NCBI GenBank assembly: GCA_964403165.1
Contig: CAYOFL010000001.1
Coordinates: 6,521 to 70,520, forward strand
DNA: 64,000 nucleotides
Direction of reading: 5' to 3'
DNA from: an uncultured Ignavibacteria bacterium
Lineage (GTDB): Bacteria > Zixibacteria > MSB-5A5 > SM1-73
A program made the translations under genes and the position numbers. Of this stretch, positions 28,153 to 46,703 are shown piece by piece (the first letter of the stretch is position 1; every line of letters begins with the position of its first letter). The notes beneath the pieces were generated by a model that did not search any database, was not told where the DNA came from, and saw only the letters and a program-made list of their open reading frames with translations.

Positions 28153-29655
28153 TTGAAGTCCAAAAGGTTAAAAATCTTGGTTGTCTCTCCAGAGGTGGTT
28201 CCTTTTGCCAAGACCGGAGGTCTGGCTGATGTATGCGGGGCTTTGCCCCAAGCCCTGGCGAAGTTAGGTCACCAGGTCAAGGTAATCTTACCTAAATACA
28301 GAATGGTGGATGAAAAAAAATTCAAGTTATCGGAGGTGAGAACAGATATTCCCCTAATTCCGGTAGGAGATAGAAGTGTTAAGATCGCACTGAGAAGCTA
28401 TAATCCAACTTCTCCTGCGTTAGAATATCTTTTTATTGTGAACGATAAGTATTATGATCGGGATGAACTTTACAAGAATCGATTAACCGGTTTCGATTAT
28501 GAGGACAATGACGAAAGATTTATTCTGTTTGCCAGAGGAACCTTAGAGATTCTAAAAGCCATAAAGTGGCAACCTGACATCATTCATGCCAATGACTGGC
28601 AGTCTGCCTTGATTTTAGCATATTTAAAAACCCGATATGCGGGGGATCCATTCTTCAAGCATACAAAAGCAGTCTTCTCCATTCATAACTTAGCCTATCA
28701 GGGCAATTTCCCCAAAAGTACATTTGACAAGATTGGAATGTCCAAAGACTTGTTTTATCCTACCAGCCCATTTGAATTCTGGGGAAACGTGAATTTTATG
28801 AAGGCAGGGATCTGTTATGCCGACGTGATCAACACGGTTTCCGAGACCTACGCGGTAGAGATACAGTCCAGCTCTGAGTTCGGTCATGGGTTGGAAGGCG
28901 TTTTGAGAAGCAGAAACAGAGATCTTTATGGCATCATCAACGGCATCGATTACGAGGTCTGGTCTCCGGAAAAAGATAAACTGATCTCCTATAACTACAG
29001 CATGGAGGATCTTTCTGGCAAAAGGAAAAACAAAGAGCTTTTGCTTAAGTTGTGCAACTTACCCCCATCCACCAAAGATGTTCCACTTGTAGGAATCATC
29101 TCCAGGCTGGCAGATCAGAAGGGATTTGATCTTTTAGCCCAGATTTCAGATGAGCTTCTTTCATTGGATTTACAAATGGTGATTTTAGGAACTGGAGACG
29201 AGAAATATCACCGATGGTTTAAAGAGATGAGTTTAAAATATCCCGACAAAATTTCAGTCAATCTTCTTTTTGACAATTCGCTGGCTCATCTGATTGAGGC
29301 GGGAAGCGATATGTTTCTCATGCCCTCCAGATACGAGCCTTGTGGCTTGAATCAACTATACAGTCTGAAGTATGGAACCGTTCCCATAGTTCGAAAGACC
29401 GGGGGATTGGCAGATACCATAGAAAATTATGATCCCCAAACCGGGCGGGGAACCGGCTTCATGTTCAAAAATTATGATGCTGTCGAACTTTTGGATACAA
29501 TCAAGTTGGCGCTGAGAGTGTATAAAGATGGAAACGCCTGGGGCAAGCTGATAGAAAATGGGATGAGGCAAGACTTTTCCTGGGAAGCATCAGCGAAAAA
29601 ATACGTTGACATTTACCAGAAAGCCATCCAGAAAATGAACGTGGTTGACGTTTGA
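28153..29655 (+). CDS. glgA: Glycogen (starch) synthase
   Basis: VVPFAKTGGLADV motif, HANDWQSAL, and the C-terminal PSRYEPCGLNQLY...GGLADT pattern. Confidence 0.9.
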   Translation: MKSKRLKILVVSPEVVPFAKTGGLADVCGALPQALAKLGHQVKVILPKYRMVDEKKFKLSEVRTDIPLIPVGDRSVKIALRSYNPTSPALEYLFIVNDKYYDRDELYKNRLTGFDYEDNDERFILFARGTLEILKAIKWQPDIIHANDWQSALILAYLKTRYAGDPFFKHTKAVFSIHNLAYQGNFPKSTFDKIGMSKDLFYPTSPFEFWGNVNFMKAGICYADVINTVSETYAVEIQSSSEFGHGLEGVLRSRNRDLYGIINGIDYEVWSPEKDKLISYNYSMEDLSGKRKNKELLLKLCNLPPSTKDVPLVGIISRLADQKGFDLLAQISDELLSLDLQMVILGTGDEKYHRWFKEMSLKYPDKISVNLLFDNSLAHLIEAGSDMFLMPSRYEPCGLNQLYSLKYGTVPIVRKTGGLADTIENYDPQTGRGTGFMFKNYDAVELLDTIKLALRVYKDGNAWGKLIENGMRQDFSWEASAKKYVDIYQKAIQKMNVVDV

Positions 29656-34283: not shown

Positions 34284-35042
34284 TCACTCAGTTTTTAAAA
34301 ATTCCAATGACCTCAAATCTTTACCTCTTCCAGTATGATAATCCAAAAGATTAAGGATAACACATAAAATCTCCTTTAAGTGTTCCTTTGGAATGTTATA
34401 CGTATTTAAATCTTCGGTCTTTATGGATTGAAGTTTAAGCGCCGAGGTCACAGAAGCATTTGATAATCTAAGATATGCCTGATCTGCTCTGGTGCAACTT
34501 TTACAGATGATTCCTCCCTTCTCCGGGCTGAACAATACAAATTTCCCCCCAACATGTTTATTGCAAATTACGCACCTATCAAACTTTGGCTTGTATCCCA
34601 GAAGATGGGCTAATTTTAGAGCATAGGAGCAAAATGATTTTTCAAGAGATTCCTCAGAACAGCTTTCCATGAAAGATAAGTTAGCTTTCATCAATTCAAA
34701 AAGTTGGGGATTTGATTCCTCACCGGTGATCAACCGATCCAAAAGCTCCAAAGTGGCTGAAGCAAAGACATATCGATTCAAATCTTTATAAAGTGACTGA
34801 TACGTTTTTATTGTTTCGCTTTGGGACAAAAGATAGATCTCAGAAGTTCGTTTTTTGTAGAAGACGATCTGAATGTGGGAAAGAGTTTGTAAAGCCCCGG
34901 CCAATCTGCTTTTGGGCTTTCTGATTCCTTTGGCAATGACTTTGATCTTCCCGCAGTCCTTGGTATACAGGGTGGCGATTTTTGAGGTGTCGCCAAATTT
35001 TATGCTTTTCAAAACGATGGCTTCGGTCTTGGTGATACTCAT
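34284..35042 (-). CDS. recO: DNA repair protein RecO
   Basis: N-terminal OB-fold signature TEAIVLKSIKFGDTSKI. C-terminal zinc motif CVICNK...CKSC. Confidence 0.8.
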   Translation of the reverse strand: MSITKTEAIVLKSIKFGDTSKIATLYTKDCGKIKVIAKGIRKPKSRLAGALQTLSHIQIVFYKKRTSEIYLLSQSETIKTYQSLYKDLNRYVFASATLELLDRLITGEESNPQLFELMKANLSFMESCSEESLEKSFCSYALKLAHLLGYKPKFDRCVICNKHVGGKFVLFSPEKGGIICKSCTRADQAYLRLSNASVTSALKLQSIKTEDLNTYNIPKEHLKEILCVILNLLDYHTGRGKDLRSLEFLKTE

Positions 35043-35458
35043 GGGGATAGGGAATCAGGTGGAGGAGGTTGAGCAGATTTCTTTTCTTCGTCTGGAGTGG
35101 ATTTTTCCTGGTAGATGATACGATACACTTTTTCCCCCTCTTTTATCATACCCAGTCTCTCTCTGGCTTGTTTTTCCAAATAGAACTCATCATCGGTGAG
35201 CCTTTTTTTCTCAATTTCTAAGTCTACGATTTCCGCGTCAAGCATTTTAGATTCTTTTTCCAAGCTCTTTTTCTCTTTCCACAAAGAGTGAATCTGAACA
35301 AATCCATAGGGTCCGGTAAAAAAACGATAGACTAAGAAGGCGAAAGCCAAAAGGAGCAAAATCCTTTTGACCATTCTTGTCTTCTGGACGCTTCTTTCTT
35401 TTACCTTTTTGAAGAAACTGCTCTGTGGTGAACTTTTTTTCTTTCTTCTTCTGGGCAT
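35039..35458 (-). CDS. ftsB: Septum formation initiator FtsB/DivIC family
   Basis: Single TM helix followed by a coiled coil and LEKQARERLGMIKEGEKVYRI, the family signature. Confidence 0.75.
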   Translation of the reverse strand: MPRRRKKKSSPQSSFFKKVKERSVQKTRMVKRILLLLAFAFLVYRFFTGPYGFVQIHSLWKEKKSLEKESKMLDAEIVDLEIEKKRLTDDEFYLEKQARERLGMIKEGEKVYRIIYQEKSTPDEEKKSAQPPPPDSLSP

Positions 35459-35471
35459 TTGCGAATACTTT

Positions 35472-35570
35472 GTAGGTCAACCATGTCCTTTAGGACTGGT
35501 TGACGAATTTTAAAAACAATCTGTCAAGCAGGCTTTCCTACGGATCCGTTGGACGCCATGCTTGACCTAC
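35472..35570. repeat. REP family C (copy C1), flank of RAYT3
   Basis: GTAGGTCAACCATGTCCTTTAGGACTGGTTGAC...GTCAAGC...GCTTGACCTAC. Confidence 0.8.
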
Positions 35571-35587
35571 GTTTTTTTTACATTTTT

Positions 35588-36100
35588 TTACTCCAAGTTC
35601 ATTTCTTCCAAATCTTTCAATTCCGTATGGCCCCAACCGACTTGATAGATTTCTTTTTTCAGCCAATGCAGATAACTGGATTGTTTAAAATCCTCCGGTC
35701 GATCAACAATTCTATGCTTGACCGGATTATAGTGAATATAATCAAAATGTCTCTTGAAGTCATCTTCATTTCTAATGATATGATCCCAAAAGCGATATTG
35801 CCACACTCGAATATTAGTTTTGATTCCATTCAGCTTTTTATATTGGCGGGAGAAATTATCTTTGAGTGACTGCATAACTACAGATACGTTTTCTTTTAAA
35901 GGCAAAATCAAAAAATGAAAATGATTAGGAATCAGAACATGAGCATAAAGTTTATAGGGATGGATTTTCTTCAGATTTTTTGCGATTTCCCAGAATAAAG
36001 ATATATTTTCTGACAATGTAAAAAGATTCTTTCTTCTATAAGTCACGCAGGTGATGAAATAAACGGCTTCCGGAATGTAGTATCTTCGAATGTTTGTCAT
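35588..36100 (-). CDS. REP-associated tyrosine transposase (RAYT), copy 3
   Basis: HUH motif NHFHFLI and Tyr motif DYIHYNPVKHRIV. The ATG at 36100 is preferred, because the track's TTG at 36112 lies inside REP C2. Confidence 0.8.
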   Translation of the reverse strand: MTNIRRYYIPEAVYFITCVTYRRKNLFTLSENISLFWEIAKNLKKIHPYKLYAHVLIPNHFHFLILPLKENVSVVMQSLKDNFSRQYKKLNGIKTNIRVWQYRFWDHIIRNEDDFKRHFDYIHYNPVKHRIVDRPEDFKQSSYLHWLKKEIYQVGWGHTELKDLEEMNLE

Positions 36101-36103
36101 AAT

Positions 36104-36353
<250 letters not shown>

Positions 36354-36357
36354 TTAT

Positions 36358-36427
36358 GTAGGTCAACCATGCCCTTTAGGACTGGCTGACGTCTTTTGCC
36401 AAGTAGGCTTCGTTATGCTTGACCTCC
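36358..36427. repeat. REP family C (copy C3, right end degenerate CTCC)
   Basis: GTAGGTCAACCATGCCCTTTAGGACTGGCTGAC...GCTTGACCTCC. It supplies the last 17 codons and the stop of the 940-aa ORF. Confidence 0.75.
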
Positions 36428-39198
36428 ATGTCTTTATCAACCTTATATACGGGCAACTGTTCTCTTAAGAGCTCATAGAGTTTGGCATCTTTTGGCTTAT
36501 GGCTATTAACTGCCCTAAGGCCCAGTTTTAACTCCTCAAAAGAAAGCTGTTTTTGTAATGTCTCCCAGAGAGGTTGATCATCTTTGAGAGTAAGTTTTTT
36601 AACCATATCTTCTGGTAATATCTCTGTGCCTCCGTTGACAGCAATGGTCTTGGCCATCGTCTCTGTAAGGTCCTGGCGCAAAATCTCCCATAGCTCCTTT
36701 CCCTGTATATGGGCAATAAGTCTGGCTAAAGCCAGGGACTGAGACAATATAGCATTCATACCCAGGTTGCCTTTTCTCTGCATAACATTAATCTGCTCTT
36801 TTATGGTTGAGTCTGGTTTTAGATGCCCACGCTCTTGAGCAAGTTGCCTTTCTAAGGTAAGGAGTCGTCTGTCTACGTTAACTAAGCTGATGAGATCAGT
36901 TATTCTCTGGCCTTCAAAGGCATTGGCTAATATCTCGTTTACATGGTCCACAGCATTAAGGCAACCCTTGCCGTAATAACGCTTAGAGCGCCGAAAAAGC
37001 TCGCTTAAAGAGGGATCCTGATATTTATCAATCTCATCTTTGGTGACCTCTTTGTTAAAACGATAACTTTCATCCGGCATCTTTTTAAATAAGGATAGGT
37101 GTTCATCTTTGGTTATCTGGCTTCTGTCGATGACGCTATCCACCAAGTGTATTGCCTCATCAGTGCCGGCTGAGGTTCCCAAGGGTGTAGACCCGGTAAA
37201 GTTGAAGAAATCCCTAAAACGCTTGCTTCCTTTGATCCCAAAGGATACCCTTACACCTACCGTAGGTATCCCGGCATTAGTTGCCTCTTCCCAGGCAGAG
37301 ACATTAGTGATAACCAGACGATTAACCAGATTCTCTGCATCCAGCTCCAATAACTTATCTTCTTCGCTTGTGTCTTGTGCCTTAGATTGGGTCTGTTTTA
37401 CTGCCTCGGCCATAATCTTCATGATTGCACCATATTTAAATAGCCGCTCTGTATTTGCACCTCCGCCTGCCTTAATGCCCATGGTAGAAGCAGCCAGGGC
37501 AATCTGAGCCTCCATGTCATCGTTGGGAGATTTGGAGCGATGAGAGACTAAAATATCTAAGTTCTTCCCTAAGGCAACCAGAATGGCAATGAGTGTCTCA
37601 GACAGGGTTCCGATCTGATTGGCCTTGCATAAAAAGGTATCATTCAGGTTATTATCGGCGGCATATTCAATCGAAGAATCTTTGGTGGTAACTGAATCGT
37701 CGCCAATGATAAATAACTTATCGCCTAATTCTTTCATGATTAAAGCCCAGCCCGCATCATCGTCTTCAGCAAAGCCATCCTCTATGGTTACGATGGGCAC
37801 ATCATCTTCTTCAATGGTCTTTCTGTAAAGTTCGAAGACCTGATCTCTGGACATAACCACCTTTTCCTTGTCCCTCCAGAATAGATACATGCCTACGGCA
37901 TCGGGTTGTCCGAATTCCTCTCTGTAAGCGTTCTGTAATTCACTGGTTGCAGGATCCAGAGCTAAAGCTACATCCTCCCCCGGGACGAACCCGCAATCGA
38001 TGATGGCTTGCTTTGCCATTCTCCAGAGTCTTTGCTCAGGGACTATATCTTTTGTCTCTTTGGTAACATAAGGAGCCAATCCCCCTTCCAATCCTATACC
38101 CATAACCCGACATCCCTCCGCATTTTCGATAATTTCTTTTAGACGGGTCTGTAGTTTTAGGGTCATCTCTTGGGCGTCTTCGTAATTTTTGGCTGAGAGG
38201 ATTACGAACATGGTCTCTTGCATGGAGATGTTGCTCTCGGGGTATTCCTTTTCAGTGTGGCGGCCACCCATACCGGAGTTACGATGTTGCCAGGGTGCCC
38301 AAATTTCTACTCCCTCTTCACGCACGACCGTTTGCATTCTTGTTTTCTGCATACGTTCCTTAACGGAGGCTACCCGTTCTATCCAGGCTGATGGTTTGGC
38401 CTTTTCCTGTATCTCTTTTCCGCGTTGCTTGGCTGTGCTCTCTCTCTCCTTAAATTGTTTGTATTTACCCGGGTCAGCTATCAGGAAGTCCAGTCCACTT
38501 ACTGCACCCAGGCCTAAAAAGAGACGACCAATATAAACTGCCAGTGGTAGGTCGGCTGATAATCCTAAGACCAGCAAGATAACAGCTAAGGGCAGGAATA
38601 TGGTGCTTAACTTCCTACTTGCGGCGGGACCGGCAGCGGACACTGCCAGGTTAAATGGTGCATCTGGATAATAGGTAAGGCCTTTCTTGAAAACCCCGGG
38701 AAACTTACCATAGGGGATAAGGCAAAACATCTTTAAATACCAGAAGATTCTCTTGAATGGGGATTTGGCTATATTTGCCTTAGCCTTAGGAAGTAATTTT
38801 ACACTCAAAGCATCTAGTTTTACTGCCTTCAGGTAATGACCCATCTCATGGATAGCAATACCTGTATGTCCGACAAACCATAAAAACAAAGCCGAGATCA
38901 AGGTCTCTGGTGAGAAGAATATGAATTTTAATGTCCCGCCTTTACCTATAATTTCCGAAGGCAGGGATAAGACACTGGAGATAAATGCCACGTGAAAAGA
39001 TACTAATATATGATTGGCGATTACCCAACCTTTTTCCAGATAACAACCGGGAACCTGTTTTGATAGATCAGACATACCTCGTTTTGAGGAGACAAATAAC
39101 ATCTTCAGATAACATTTGAACAAACTAAGATTATGAACAACCAGATCAAACACGCTTTTAATACTCTTGATTGTCGGCATGTTTTTTCTCCTCCTCAT
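36376..39198 (-). CDS. Membrane protein: M50-like HExxH transmembrane domain fused to an enolase-superfamily module with barrel domain preceding the N-terminal domain
   Basis: HEMGH at aa 117-121 within hydrophobic segments. Enolase barrel motifs at aa ~305-595 (QETMF, LEGGLAP, ALDPATSE, TIEDGFAEDD, IGDDSVTT, CKANQIGTLSET, SHRSKSPNDD, IKAGG). Enolase N-domain motifs at aa ~628-842 (NAGIPTVGVRV, PLGTSAGTDEA, YYGKGCLNAVDHVNEIL, GNLGMNAILSQSLALARL). Confidence 0.65.
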   Translation of the reverse strand: MRRRKNMPTIKSIKSVFDLVVHNLSLFKCYLKMLFVSSKRGMSDLSKQVPGCYLEKGWVIANHILVSFHVAFISSVLSLPSEIIGKGGTLKFIFFSPETLISALFLWFVGHTGIAIHEMGHYLKAVKLDALSVKLLPKAKANIAKSPFKRIFWYLKMFCLIPYGKFPGVFKKGLTYYPDAPFNLAVSAAGPAASRKLSTIFLPLAVILLVLGLSADLPLAVYIGRLFLGLGAVSGLDFLIADPGKYKQFKERESTAKQRGKEIQEKAKPSAWIERVASVKERMQKTRMQTVVREEGVEIWAPWQHRNSGMGGRHTEKEYPESNISMQETMFVILSAKNYEDAQEMTLKLQTRLKEIIENAEGCRVMGIGLEGGLAPYVTKETKDIVPEQRLWRMAKQAIIDCGFVPGEDVALALDPATSELQNAYREEFGQPDAVGMYLFWRDKEKVVMSRDQVFELYRKTIEEDDVPIVTIEDGFAEDDDAGWALIMKELGDKLFIIGDDSVTTKDSSIEYAADNNLNDTFLCKANQIGTLSETLIAILVALGKNLDILVSHRSKSPNDDMEAQIALAASTMGIKAGGGANTERLFKYGAIMKIMAEAVKQTQSKAQDTSEEDKLLELDAENLVNRLVITNVSAWEEATNAGIPTVGVRVSFGIKGSKRFRDFFNFTGSTPLGTSAGTDEAIHLVDSVIDRSQITKDEHLSLFKKMPDESYRFNKEVTKDEIDKYQDPSLSELFRRSKRYYGKGCLNAVDHVNEILANAFEGQRITDLISLVNVDRRLLTLERQLAQERGHLKPDSTIKEQINVMQRKGNLGMNAILSQSLALARLIAHIQGKELWEILRQDLTETMAKTIAVNGGTEILPEDMVKKLTLKDDQPLWETLQKQLSFEELKLGLRAVNSHKPKDAKLYELLREQLPVYKVDKDMEVKHNEAYLAKDVSQS

Positions 39199-39533
39199 TA
39201 AGGGTTAGAGACAATCCTTGTCTCGGAGCATAATTTAAGTTAAGGAAAATCATTTTTCAACAAAAAAATCCATATGACAGATTTATATTAATTTTTTAGC
39301 TAAAAAATTTTTTTATGCTCATCCAAAACCATCCACGGTCATTTCTAAACTACACCGTGTTTTTGAAATCTATATATTTGTAAATCGGAAGCTGTTGCGT
39401 CATCTTTAAAATCTTTGCCGGGAGGGAGTAAAAGAGAAAGGAGACACTTATTATTGTAACATGACTCTCTCAAGAGGGGATGTCATTTGTTGGTTTAAAA
39501 TTCAATTTCTGCTTCCCAGCCCAGATTCGTTTT

Positions 39534-41723
39534 CTACAAAAGCTGTGATCTTTTTCTTATAGCCCATTCGATGGACAGGCAAAGGATAAAGATAACTAAA
39601 AGCAGAGGATGATTCCACAGTTGAATCTCCTTTTTCTTCTGCTCTTCTTTTTCTACCAGCTTAAGATCACCCACCAGGTTTTCAATCTGGTCCTTTTCGT
39701 AATATCTTCCTCCGGACACCTCAGCTATCCTCTTCAGAAGATCGAAATTTGTTTTCAGATCGGAGTCCTCCACGCTGTATTCCTCCACTAAGAATTCACC
39801 TTTTTTTGCGCCCATTTTTTCCCCGTCCCTGAAGGCGTTTCCTACAAAAGAGTATTTTCCGGGTGGGAGTGCTCCCAATGTGGCGGTATAGCGACCCGAC
39901 TCGTCTAAGCTCAAATTGACCACCTCCGAATCTGGCAGAGCCTCTCCTTCGATGTTTACCACCACCGAGGCGTCTTCGATTCTTTGATAATTTTGATCAA
40001 AGATTTTGGCTTTGAAAGTTATTCTCTCTCCACCCTTGTAAATCTTTTTATCGGTGAACAGATTTATCAAATCCATATCCTCTCTGACCACCAGCCAACG
40101 GACTGAGTTGTTCCAGAATGTTTGATAGATTTGGTTATCCTTTCCGATCCCCCACAAAAGAAAATCCCATCTCCAGAAGGGTGTTACGGTAATTGCCATC
40201 ACCTTTCCTTTTCCATAATTTCTAACTACTATCCCGGGAGAGAAGGTATCACGATTCAAAGGATTTTTAAAACCGGCCAGGTTGGTGGCATCTTTGGTTA
40301 CCGAACCGAGCGCACAAACTCCTAAAAATGGAGGGAGATCAGACCATATCTTTATATTCTCATCCAGATTTTCCACCAGGCGGGTAATAGGGTGTAGCTT
40401 ACCTTCTTCTGTCAACTTCAGATTGAGCCTGGGGGAAGAAAAGGTGATGCTTCTTCCTGCAAGGTCGAAAGGCAGAAGAGATGATATCTCCATAAAGCCA
40501 TGGGAATCCAGGAATACCTTGCCCAGTAAGAAGGAAGCCGAACCTCCTTGGCTGAAGACAAAATCTTCGATTTGCTTTTTATGGTCCTTCAGGATGAATC
40601 TGGAGGGATCAACAAAAATTAAAATATCAAATGAACTTAGTTGTTTTTCCCCTTGTGGAAATCTGCCCACCAGAGGTTGCCTTTTTTTCCCATAAATTAA
40701 AGTTTCAAGCTTGATATTTCTGTCCCGTTCTAAAGCCCTTTTCAAAAAAGTGTATTCCCAGTTTAAGCTTCCGGTGATTAAAAGTATCTTGATCTTGCTT
40801 TTTAGGACCTTGATGGTAAATGAGCGCTGGTTATTTTCCTTAACCGACTCCCCTTCTAAAACAGGAATCGTGAGTCGATACTGATGCAGTCCGGGTTCTT
40901 CCGGAGTGATGGTAAGATTGACGGTCTGGGTTGCTCCGGATTTGCCCGGGCTTAAGTTCTGCTGGGTTAAGGTTTTTTTCTTTTCCTTTATCGAAACTGG
41001 GATTTTGATACGATCAAAGCCTGTTTGCGAAATGTCTACCCGAATGGGAATCTGATCTCCAACATAGCCGATATCTGTATAGAGGATCCTTTCTATGGAT
41101 ACATCCCGGGGTGGGATGTACTCGCCCACGCCGCAGGTATAAATAGGGATATCCTCCGATCTTGCCACCAGCACCGGATCCTCACCCAGATTATTTGCGC
41201 CATCACTTAAGATCACGATACCGACAAGATTTTCCTCCTTCAATTTTTTCTCCACCAATTTAATGCCCTCTCCTATGGAAGTGGCGGTGCCCAAAGAGTC
41301 AGGAAATTTCCCCTTTATGTCCACCCGAACAAGGGAGTCAGCAAAGCCGAATGTTTTTAATTCTGCCTCAGATGAGATCTTCTCAAAGATGTCGTTTTTC
41401 AACAAATTCTGCAGTTCCTCTATTCTTTTGATGTCAGCCCCTTTGAGGCTCATGCTTCTGGAGACGTCCAAAAGCAAAGCGATCACCGGTTTTTGGGAAA
41501 CCCTTCTGGCGATGGTTAAAATCGGCTCGGAGAGGACCAGAAAAAGAGAAAACAAAGCGATGATCCTCAAGCCCAGAAGCAGAGTCTTTTTTCTTTTACC
41601 TAAAGGAGGAAAGGTGTGGCGGTAAGTGAGAATGGCGAAAAGACAAGCCAGGATGAAAAGGCCGATCACCAGTTCCAGATTTCTCTCTTGGAGATTTAGA
41701 AGTAATTCACTGATTTTAAGCAA
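39534..41723 (-). CDS. Membrane-anchored vWA-domain protein (BatA-like N-terminal double TM, C-terminal TM anchor)
   Basis: Two N-terminal TM helices, MIDAS-like DVSRSMS, large beta-rich middle region, terminal TM helix LLLVIFILCLSIEWAI. TTG start. Confidence 0.5.
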   Translation of the reverse strand: MLKISELLLNLQERNLELVIGLFILACLFAILTYRHTFPPLGKRKKTLLLGLRIIALFSLFLVLSEPILTIARRVSQKPVIALLLDVSRSMSLKGADIKRIEELQNLLKNDIFEKISSEAELKTFGFADSLVRVDIKGKFPDSLGTATSIGEGIKLVEKKLKEENLVGIVILSDGANNLGEDPVLVARSEDIPIYTCGVGEYIPPRDVSIERILYTDIGYVGDQIPIRVDISQTGFDRIKIPVSIKEKKKTLTQQNLSPGKSGATQTVNLTITPEEPGLHQYRLTIPVLEGESVKENNQRSFTIKVLKSKIKILLITGSLNWEYTFLKRALERDRNIKLETLIYGKKRQPLVGRFPQGEKQLSSFDILIFVDPSRFILKDHKKQIEDFVFSQGGSASFLLGKVFLDSHGFMEISSLLPFDLAGRSITFSSPRLNLKLTEEGKLHPITRLVENLDENIKIWSDLPPFLGVCALGSVTKDATNLAGFKNPLNRDTFSPGIVVRNYGKGKVMAITVTPFWRWDFLLWGIGKDNQIYQTFWNNSVRWLVVREDMDLINLFTDKKIYKGGERITFKAKIFDQNYQRIEDASVVVNIEGEALPDSEVVNLSLDESGRYTATLGALPPGKYSFVGNAFRDGEKMGAKKGEFLVEEYSVEDSDLKTNFDLLKRIAEVSGGRYYEKDQIENLVGDLKLVEKEEQKKKEIQLWNHPLLLVIFILCLSIEWAIRKRSQLL

Positions 41724-46508: not shown

Positions 46509-46592
46509 TGCCGGAGTGGTGAAATTGGTAGACGCACGGGACTCAAAATCCCGCGACCCTCGGGTCGTGTCGGTTCGATTCCGACCTCCGGC
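46509..46592 (+). tRNA. tRNA-Leu (anticodon CAA), no encoded CCA
   Basis: Acceptor stem GCCGGAG/CTCCGGC, anticodon loop CTCAAAA, long variable arm CGACCCTCGGGTCGTG, T-loop GGTTCGATTCC. Confidence 0.9.
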
Positions 46593-46703
46593 ACAATGCA
46601 ATCAGGGGAATTCGAGAGAGTAAAGGGGGGGTCTTTTTTGTATGGTTTCAGGGGTGGACCCACCTTAAGCAGGGATATAATCGGTTAAAAAATGCCCCAA
46701 ACC

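Follow-up and report, generated by a model that had tools for sequence, protein, structure and literature searches.

Enolase is among the most conserved and best-studied enzymes. In the RNA degradosome, a partner protein (RNase E in E. coli, RNase Y in B. subtilis) keeps it close to the inner side of the membrane. Site-2 proteases (S2Ps) of the SpoIVFB type carry a cytoplasmic C-terminal CBS domain. To our knowledge, neither a natural circular permutation nor an integral-membrane form of enolase has been described, and literature searches for permuted or integral-membrane enolases found no description of the family presented here, as a preliminary description of this DNA had supposed. The family is represented in a stretch of 64,000 nucleotides (hereafter the window) from an uncultured Ignavibacteria bacterium that GTDB places in the Zixibacteria (assembly GCA_964403165.1, contig CAYOFL010000001.1, positions 6,521 to 70,520). 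The open reading frame (ORF) at 36376..39198 on the minus strand, here called the long gene, encodes a protein of 940 amino acids that consists of a membrane domain, a stalk, an enolase with its two domains in reversed order, and a tail. We consider it fairly likely that the product would be an active, membrane-tethered enolase able to replace the housekeeping enzyme.

The reversed domain order is supported by three types of alignment. In the Pfam search, Enolase_C covers residues 320-604 (E 3e-43; 148.6 bits, cut-off 21.5), and Enolase_N follows the barrel at residues 630-783 (E 1.2e-10; 42.1 bits, cut-off 35). In profile-profile alignments (hhalign) against 13 canonical enolases taken from related loci, residues 295-607 align to canonical positions 136-421 (probability 100, E 6e-46), while residues 629-845 align to canonical positions 3-135 (E 3e-20). 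A phmmer search of the PDB matched residues 318-601 to residues 154-415 of the B. subtilis enolase 4a3r, and residues 739-780 and 803-846 to about residues 57-140 of enolase, in agreement with the order given by Pfam. Instead of the canonical cap-before-barrel order, the window protein has the barrel at 295-607 and the cap at 629-845, and the same order was found in every homologue tested. We regard the barrel-then-cap order as a fact of the sequence, far beyond chance. The preliminary description had reported the 940-residue ORF, its enolase motifs and their C-then-N order from reading the letters, and all of these were recovered. The true start of the ORF may be M7, from which the copy in the protein search (P0001) was called.

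The active site is retained. In an alignment of 173 family members, from which conservation was read, residues H314, Q327, E328, E371, D415, E473, D474, D500, D501 and K525 are invariant (173/173), and so are H553, R554, S555, K576, S676 and E681. The catalytic acid/base residues, the Mg ligands, the phosphate-binding H-R-S and the lid serine are all present and align to the canonical positions, as had been proposed by eye. We take H314, Q327, E328, E371, D415, E473, D474, D500 and D501 to be the equivalents of H159, Q167, E168, E211, D246, E295, D296, D320 and D321 in yeast enolase, and K525, H553, R554, S555, K576 and S676 to be those of K345, H373, R374, S375, K396 and S39. Three features distinguish the family from canonical enolases. 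K556 is invariant and adjoins the phosphate-binding H-R-S, so that the motif reads SHRSK rather than the canonical SHRSG. The loop that contains H314 is five residues longer than in canonical enolases and invariant in the family (GGRHTEKEYPESNISMQE). Finally, an insertion of about 50 residues follows directly after the lid loop; according to hhalign, the cap domain contains two insertions, at residues 686-738 and about 783-805.

The full-length AlphaFold2 (AF2) model, which was built on an alignment of 51 sequences, is confident (mean pLDDT 80.9, pTM 0.78), with pLDDT values of about 84-95 over residues 100-300 and above 85 over most of the enolase part. Each of the top 50 Foldseek matches of this model in the PDB is an enolase; the alignments span about 300 columns, at a target-normalised TM-score of 0.55. 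Only the barrel is aligned in these matches, as would be expected when a sequential aligner meets a permuted protein. PDB entries 2fym and 5ohg are among the matches of the window protein in the phmmer and Foldseek searches.

The cap domain is followed by a conserved helical tail. Its residues ~850-900 had been tentatively read in the preliminary description as the remnant of a second barrel, for which we found no significant profile similarity. Aligned alone to canonical enolase, the tail gave P 0.07; aligned as the start of a second barrel to canonical positions 125-210, it gave P 0.01, with a match of only 10 residues (KLYELLRE to PLYRYLGG) whose score of 17.7 is barely above the maximum of 15.4 among 60 column-shuffled controls. 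A greedy hhalign alignment extends from the cap into canonical positions 136-206, without confidence. In two other loci (L005 and L036), however, the complete module is duplicated in tandem and in frame, so that a duplication route to the permutation stays plausible. In the Cloacimonadota locus L005, an ORF of 1888 amino acids (L005:9968-15634) consists of two complete tandem modules in one frame and is followed by a canonical enolase gene.

In the window organism, the long gene now stands where relatives have their housekeeping eno. Directly downstream of it lies the 3' end of a canonical eno gene, which is called as a 52-residue "gene" (P0262) in public data. This relic is 86.6% identical in nucleotide sequence and 96% identical in amino acid sequence to the canonical eno of relatives. 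The differences are mostly synonymous, suggesting that the relic belonged to a functional gene until recently, and so that its truncation is recent. We take it to be the remnant of the displaced housekeeping eno. The relic's exact C-terminus is absent among the 120 closest Zixibacteria enolases, where the best match is 53/57, which is suggestive only with respect to an intact canonical eno in the window lineage.

The gene order in relatives defines the slot. In the close relatives L001 and L081-L084, the order is Dus, polyprenyl synthase, the 729-residue membrane protein, the long gene, DivIC, RecO and GlyRS, and no canonical eno was found near the long gene in these loci. In all Zixibacteria-like relatives, the gene for the 729-residue protein is the constant upstream neighbour of the slot, whether this contains the long gene or the canonical eno; a homologue of it precedes the long gene in L024, and the divIC/ftsB-like gene is found at the same position in L081-L084 and L091-L093. 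This 729-residue protein itself shows faint MG2-like matches only. Four Zixibacteria-like loci, L090-L093, were located by a search with the relic and then by an exact DNA pattern scan; they share this gene block, but contain a canonical eno of 431-433 amino acids between the 729-residue gene and divIC, and lack the long gene. L091 is colinear with the window, with a nucleotide identity of about 84%, as far as window position 39531, where the 729-residue gene ends. Colinearity resumes at position 36350, at about codon 378 of eno, and continues through the transposase, DivIC, RecO and GlyRS genes. Between the two breakpoints there are 1470 nucleotides in L091 and 3180 nucleotides, with the long gene, in the window. 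In L024, the homologue of the 729-residue gene, the long gene, a canonical eno and DivIC stand in a row, and the simplest history would be such a tandem state followed by the loss of one or the other gene.

The eno relic is boxed in by copies of a palindromic hairpin of 33-45 nucleotides, of which the window contains three (35472-35504, 36104-36136 and 36358-36390) and none would be expected by chance. The first two, identical over 33 nucleotides, flank an IS200-like Y1 transposase gene, and a homologous Y1_Tnp gene is located at the same site in L091. A candidate explanation of the relic as a passenger fragment of the IS200-like element was ruled out, since the colinearity with L091 extends across the relic, the transposase and divIC. 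In L081 and L082, the hairpins recur at this site on either side of an ORF with a PD40 β-propeller, so that the intergenic region would seem to be a hot spot of insertion.

The family is large and widespread. A protein search identified 869 homologues of the window protein, the best 120 of which are, apart from one fragment, 827-1418 amino acids long. They cover ~92% of the query at 50-100% identity and are named "hypothetical protein" or "enolase" only. Within a GTDB search set of one genome per species, 264 species representatives carrying more than ten phylum labels have the same architecture at 50-85% identity; the search for homologues with the same domain order that had been proposed at the outset was thus answered by these genomes and by metagenome proteins. 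Counts at the level of loci are based on 80 loci from the 264 GTDB stretches. Their labels include WOR-3, Stahlbacteria, Cloacimonadota, Omnitrophota, Planctomycetota (several orders), Acidobacteriota/Aminicenantes, Chloroflexota, Desulfobacterota-like, Gemmatimonadota, Verrucomicrobiota, Ignavibacteria and two Asgard archaeal metagenome-assembled genomes (MAGs), some of which may be wrong, as MAG labels can be. The long genes of the two Asgard-labelled MAGs (L034 and L035; Sifarchaeum and Promethearchaeota) encode proteins 52-53% identical to that of the window and could represent a transfer or a binning error.

A canonical eno is located near the long gene in 13 of the 80 loci. It follows the long gene directly in 11 of them, and the other two, those of the Asgard-labelled MAGs, have it on the other strand; one of the 13 loci lies on the complete WOR-3 chromosome CP070664. 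Since both forms are present there, the long form is a paralogue that has some separate function. In 14 loci, the ORF runs about 1200 residues further and ends in a part that corresponds to residues 14-509 of pyruvate phosphate dikinase (PPDK). These ORFs of 1800-2430 amino acids consist of the membrane domain, the permuted enolase, about 700 residues without a Pfam match, and the PPDK part, which matches 1kbl at E 6e-44 and is made up of an ATP-grasp domain and a phospho-His swivel domain that carries the GGxTSHAAV motif as GGSTSHAAV. The barrel of PPDK that binds phosphoenolpyruvate (PEP) or pyruvate is missing in all 14. No match to such a PPDK-like tail was found in the window, where the ORF ends at residue 940. 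Furthermore, giant Omnitrophota ORFs embed the module together with domains of glycogen synthase, GlpX fructose-bisphosphatase, UDP-glucose pyrophosphorylase, guanylate kinase and Glu/Leu/Phe/Val-type (ELFV) dehydrogenase, as well as HD, nitroreductase, response-regulator and GNAT domains. The fusion partners in the PPDK-type and giant ORFs link the module to the metabolism of PEP and carbohydrates, not to signalling.

The first ~240 residues contain a domain with four hydrophobic helices and an HExxH motif, which agrees with the earlier proposal that the protein is membrane-tethered. Hydropathy places transmembrane helices at about residues 58-79, 90-117, 195-215 and 218-240, with HEMGH (117-121) at the end of the second, and a presumably cytoplasmic amphipathic stretch contains a β-hairpin at 169-178. 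Both termini and the enolase are probably cytoplasmic, because the N-terminus is basic, residues 122-194 are rich in Lys and Arg, and a charged segment follows residue 241. The HExxH motif is present in 172 of 172 family sequences, D237 ("LLDFL", at the end of helix 218-240) is invariant, and H63, H69 and H111 within the transmembrane helices are nearly so. Both copies of the module in the tandem duplicates L005 and L036 keep the HExxH and the Asp. D237 is a candidate third metal ligand that we liken, on a presumed equivalence, to the LDG motif of site-2 proteases. The order of an HExxH helix, a β-hairpin, an "AGP" helix and an Asp-bearing transmembrane helix is presumably that of the site-2 protease core, which we treat as a lead and not as a test.

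The relationship of this domain to the M50 family is less clear. Peptidase_M50 (PF02163) matches residues 114-292 of the window protein with E 0.093, which is below the cut-off: the full protein scores 12.5 bits and the isolated domain 14.6 bits, against a gathering score of 27.2. Of 15 family members, 11 reach E<=1 with PF02163, and the lowest E-value is 1.2e-7. A search of PDB sequences with the membrane-domain profile (hmmsearch) returned a chance match alone, at E 0.07, and no site-2 protease. The model of the membrane domain (pLDDT 77.8) gave no significant match in Foldseek, and the best site-2 protease, that of M. jannaschii (3b4r_A), was found at rank 23 with E 2.3 over 171 columns at a root-mean-square deviation of 6.9. 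Among 1.84 billion representative proteins, the membrane-domain profile matched 140 clusters only and no ordinary M50 protein. The members of these clusters longer than about 800 residues have the length of the enolase module or are giant proteins, and the short ones look like fragments. Apart from such short, fragment-like matches, the membrane domain was thus not found in the same collection without the enolase module. The "M50-like HExxH transmembrane domain" of the preliminary description therefore stands in its hydrophobic helices and its HEMGH at 117-121, while the M50 label is below threshold.

Taken together, we favour the following reading. The enolase part is most likely a working 2-phosphoglycerate (2-PGA)/PEP enolase at the inner face of the membrane. 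The long protein has probably taken over the ordinary enolase duty in the window organism, because its gene is located in the exact eno slot, between the 729-residue gene and divIC, with the 3' relic of eno beside it. The membrane domain would bind a metal via H117, H121 and D237, and would act in need of the adjoining enolase. The invariant residues of the putative metal site and the fact that, except for fragment-like matches, the two parts were never found apart suggest a second, coupled function. For this, we favour a zinc-dependent intramembrane activity, either hydrolytic (site-2-type) or regulatory, that would be tied to the turnover of 2-PGA/PEP or to the substrate occupancy of the enolase.

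Several observations weigh against this reading. The score of the window protein against the enolase equivalog TIGR01060 (NCBIfam), 193.9 bits, is below the cut-off of 300. K556, the longer H314 loop and the insertion after the lid lie beside the phosphate site and could indicate an altered substrate. The canonical eno beside the long gene in 13 of the 80 loci suggests that the long form is not simply redundant with it, and the replacement in the window lineage was observed at the eno slot. With regard to the membrane domain, its similarity to M50 appears to be a distant resemblance that does not establish membership, and no neighbour conserved across phyla in the 80 loci points to a substrate for a protease.

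A bolder extension, which we put forward tentatively and regard as doubtful, is that the protein is a coupled machine, in which 2-PGA/PEP in the enolase gates a zinc-dependent reaction in the membrane, and in which the enolase barrel replaces the PPDK barrel in the long relatives. If so, the turnover or occupancy of 2-PGA/PEP in the short form would directly gate a site-2-type intramembrane cleavage, or a different zinc-dependent reaction in the membrane, and wire the flux through lower glycolysis to membrane signalling. In the long relatives, the phospho-His swivel would exchange phosphate with PEP in the enolase site, which would make these proteins a new 2-PGA/pyruvate/ATP enzyme.

Among the alternatives, the one that survives best is a metabolite-gated intramembrane protease, in which site-2-type proteolysis would be the primary activity and the enolase would be a sensor of 2-PGA/PEP in the place of a CBS or PDZ domain, its turnover being secondary or irrelevant. 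The invariance of the HExxH and of two Asp residues, the additional, nearly invariant transmembrane His residues, the order of helices and hairpin that presumably fits the S2P core, and the M50 matches, weak as they are but recurrent, are all in line with such a protein. So are the C-terminal and cytoplasmic position of the enolase, presumably like that of the CBS domain in SpoIVFB, and the 13 loci in which the long form stands beside a canonical eno. However, a pure sensor would leave the in-situ replacement of the housekeeping eno in the window lineage unexplained, and the ~14 catalytic residues are all invariant across phyla. The fusion partners (PPDK, fructose-bisphosphatase and glycogen synthase) are metabolic, not signalling proteins, and no significant match to S2Ps was obtained in fold or in PDB sequence. 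We therefore consider a protease of this kind unlikely.

A second alternative is that the protein is an enolase-fold enzyme with a changed substrate, not 2-PGA but another 2-phospho-3-hydroxy-acid, possibly larger or membrane-associated, on which it would act together with the putative metal site in the membrane. The invariant K556 next to the H-R-S, the five additional, invariant residues in the H314 loop, the large insertion after the lid loop and the score below the equivalog cut-off would be expected of such an enzyme, and the module is always joined to a membrane domain rich in conserved polar residues. Yet every residue known to bind 2-PGA/PEP and the two Mg ions is kept, the positional replacement of the housekeeping eno favours the ordinary activity, and the fusion to PPDK domains fits PEP as the ligand. 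In our judgement, this makes a changed substrate quite improbable.

It is also conceivable that the membrane domain is a mere tether, a degenerate relic of a protease, and that the protein is simply a membrane-localised enolase. This would account for the lack of significant structural or PDB matches to active S2Ps and for the use of the module as the membrane-embedded part of giant cytoplasmic multi-enzyme proteins. It is hard to reconcile with the conservation of the HExxH in 172/172 sequences, of D237 and D242 in 173/173, and nearly so of H63, H69 and H111, across more than ten phyla and in both tandem copies, and a passive anchor is in our view very unlikely. Finally, the chance that the long ORF is an artefact, a chimeric assembly (which the preliminary description had listed as something to exclude) or a mis-joined gene, is practically nil. 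The identical protein is recorded on four contigs, among them one from JGI, which shares the downstream transposase, and one from a different source, Logan. In addition, the full-length architecture recurs in 264 species representatives and in hundreds of metagenome proteins, and the GC content is uniform across the locus.

The positions of the features in the window and in the other loci are given in Table 1.

Table 1. Coordinates of the long gene's domains and motifs, of the surrounding eno slot, and of fusion ORFs in other loci
Feature	Position	Strand	Basis or remark
N-terminal leader, residues 1-53	39040..39198	-	Basic, non-conserved, probably cytoplasmic; alignments begin at ~53; pLDDT <50
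Four-helix membrane domain, residues 54-242	38473..39039	-	Distantly S2P/M50-like; hydropathy, AF2, weak Pfam match
HEMGH, H117/E118/H121	38836..38850	-	Putative zinc-binding and catalytic motif; probable cytoplasmic end of transmembrane helix 2
LDFLIAD, D237...D242	38473..38490	-	Probable cytoplasmic end of transmembrane helix 4; both Asp 173/173
Charged two-helix stalk, residues 243-294	38317..38472	-	AF2 helices 243-266 and 272-286, pLDDT about 77-91
TIM-barrel domain, residues 295-607	37378..38316	-	Pfam, hhalign, Foldseek; complete
New linker, residues 608-628	37315..37377	-	Joins old C-terminus to old N-terminus; between hhalign blocks; AF2 helix 612-627
Enolase cap domain after the barrel, residues 629-845	36664..37314	-	Pfam, hhalign; holds Ser676 (PLGTSAGT)
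Helical C-terminal tail, residues 846-923	36430..36663	-	Conserved, for instance in motifs with R912 and Y918; pLDDT about 90
REP-like palindromic hairpin, copy 3	36358..36390	.	Stop codon and final codons of the long ORF lie within it; right breakpoint
57-codon 3' relic of canonical enolase	36180..36353	-	In frame, without the 5' part; ends ...NIKNL*
IS200-like Y1 transposase gene (35588-36112)	35472..36136 (including hairpins)	-	Pfam Y1_Tnp E 6e-7
divIC/ftsB-like gene	35039..35458	-	Downstream neighbour of the eno slot; Pfam DivIC E 1.9e-21
Gene for 729-residue membrane protein	39534..41723	-	Upstream neighbour of the eno slot; left breakpoint; conserved in relatives
PPDK-fusion ORFs	L044-L050, L057, L060, L061, L065, L068, L072, L077; e.g. 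L050:9824-16129		
Giant Omnitrophota ORF, >=6716 aa	L033:2-20151		Embeds the module
Giant Omnitrophota ORF, 3866 aa	L036:5549-17149		Two full modules and a third, partial barrel
Giant Omnitrophota ORF, 3214 aa	L003:751-10395		Embeds the module

The neighbourhood of the long gene differs between lineages. In an all-against-all clustering of ORFs, no neighbour cluster was present in more than 15 of the 80 loci, and none was conserved across phyla. M48 peptidase, Nth, Psd and PssA neighbours are lineage-specific. For example, the long gene in several WOR-3-type loci (L007-L011, L013, L014 and L031) is followed by genes for an M48 peptidase with zinc-ribbon domains, endonuclease III and a polysaccharide-flippase-like protein. 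A small downstream ORF in Planctomycetota (cluster c4) was considered as a possible FtsB/DivIC and rejected, as it had no Pfam match and no hhalign support. In the window, a glycogen synthase (GT5) gene is located at 28153-29655 on the plus strand, ~7 kb from the long gene, and at the same position in relatives. Rfam, promoter and terminator scans around the long gene gave nothing informative, and the only Rfam match in the window is a single tRNA at 46510-46593 on the plus strand.

A membrane-tethered, permuted enolase of the kind that we favour would matter for several reasons. At least 264 genomes, each standing for a species and drawn from many phyla that are mostly uncultured, contain the permuted membrane form, which is as conserved as enolase itself. 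Its annotation as "hypothetical" or plain "enolase" misses what appears to be a real difference in central metabolism. When the metabolism of MAGs from Zixibacteria, WOR-3, Omnitrophota, Planctomycetota and other groups is reconstructed, enolase may be scored as present or absent from the wrong gene. The family is also a natural example in which the tolerance of a two-domain enzyme to permutation can be studied.

Compared with known systems, the parts of the protein are familiar, while the permutation, the covalent union with a membrane domain that carries a putative metal site, and the PPDK-type fusions appear to be new. Canonical enolase (EC 4.2.1.11; PF03952 and PF00113; TIGR01060) is the closest relative: both of its domains are significant in the window protein, the barrels are ~30-35% identical, the residues for catalysis and for the binding of Mg and phosphate are retained, as is the lid Ser, and the two genes share a genomic slot across relatives. 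The window protein differs from it in the reversed domains, the new linker, the two cap insertions, the longer H314 loop and the SHRSK motif, and adds a membrane domain of ~290 residues at the N-terminus and a helical tail of ~80 residues. Like the site-2 proteases of the M50 family (RseP, SpoIVFB and the S2P of M. jannaschii), it has an HExxH in a transmembrane helix, probably at the cytoplasmic face, followed by the hairpin, "AGP" helix and Asp-bearing helix; unlike them, it scores below the Pfam gathering score, matches no S2P sequence in the PDB and has neither a PDZ nor a CBS domain. The similarity to PPDK is limited to the long relatives, in which the PEP/pyruvate TIM barrel is absent. 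In the RNA degradosome, a soluble canonical enolase is bound to a membrane-anchored partner, whereas the anchor of the window protein is covalent, has its own putative metal site and comes without an RNase.

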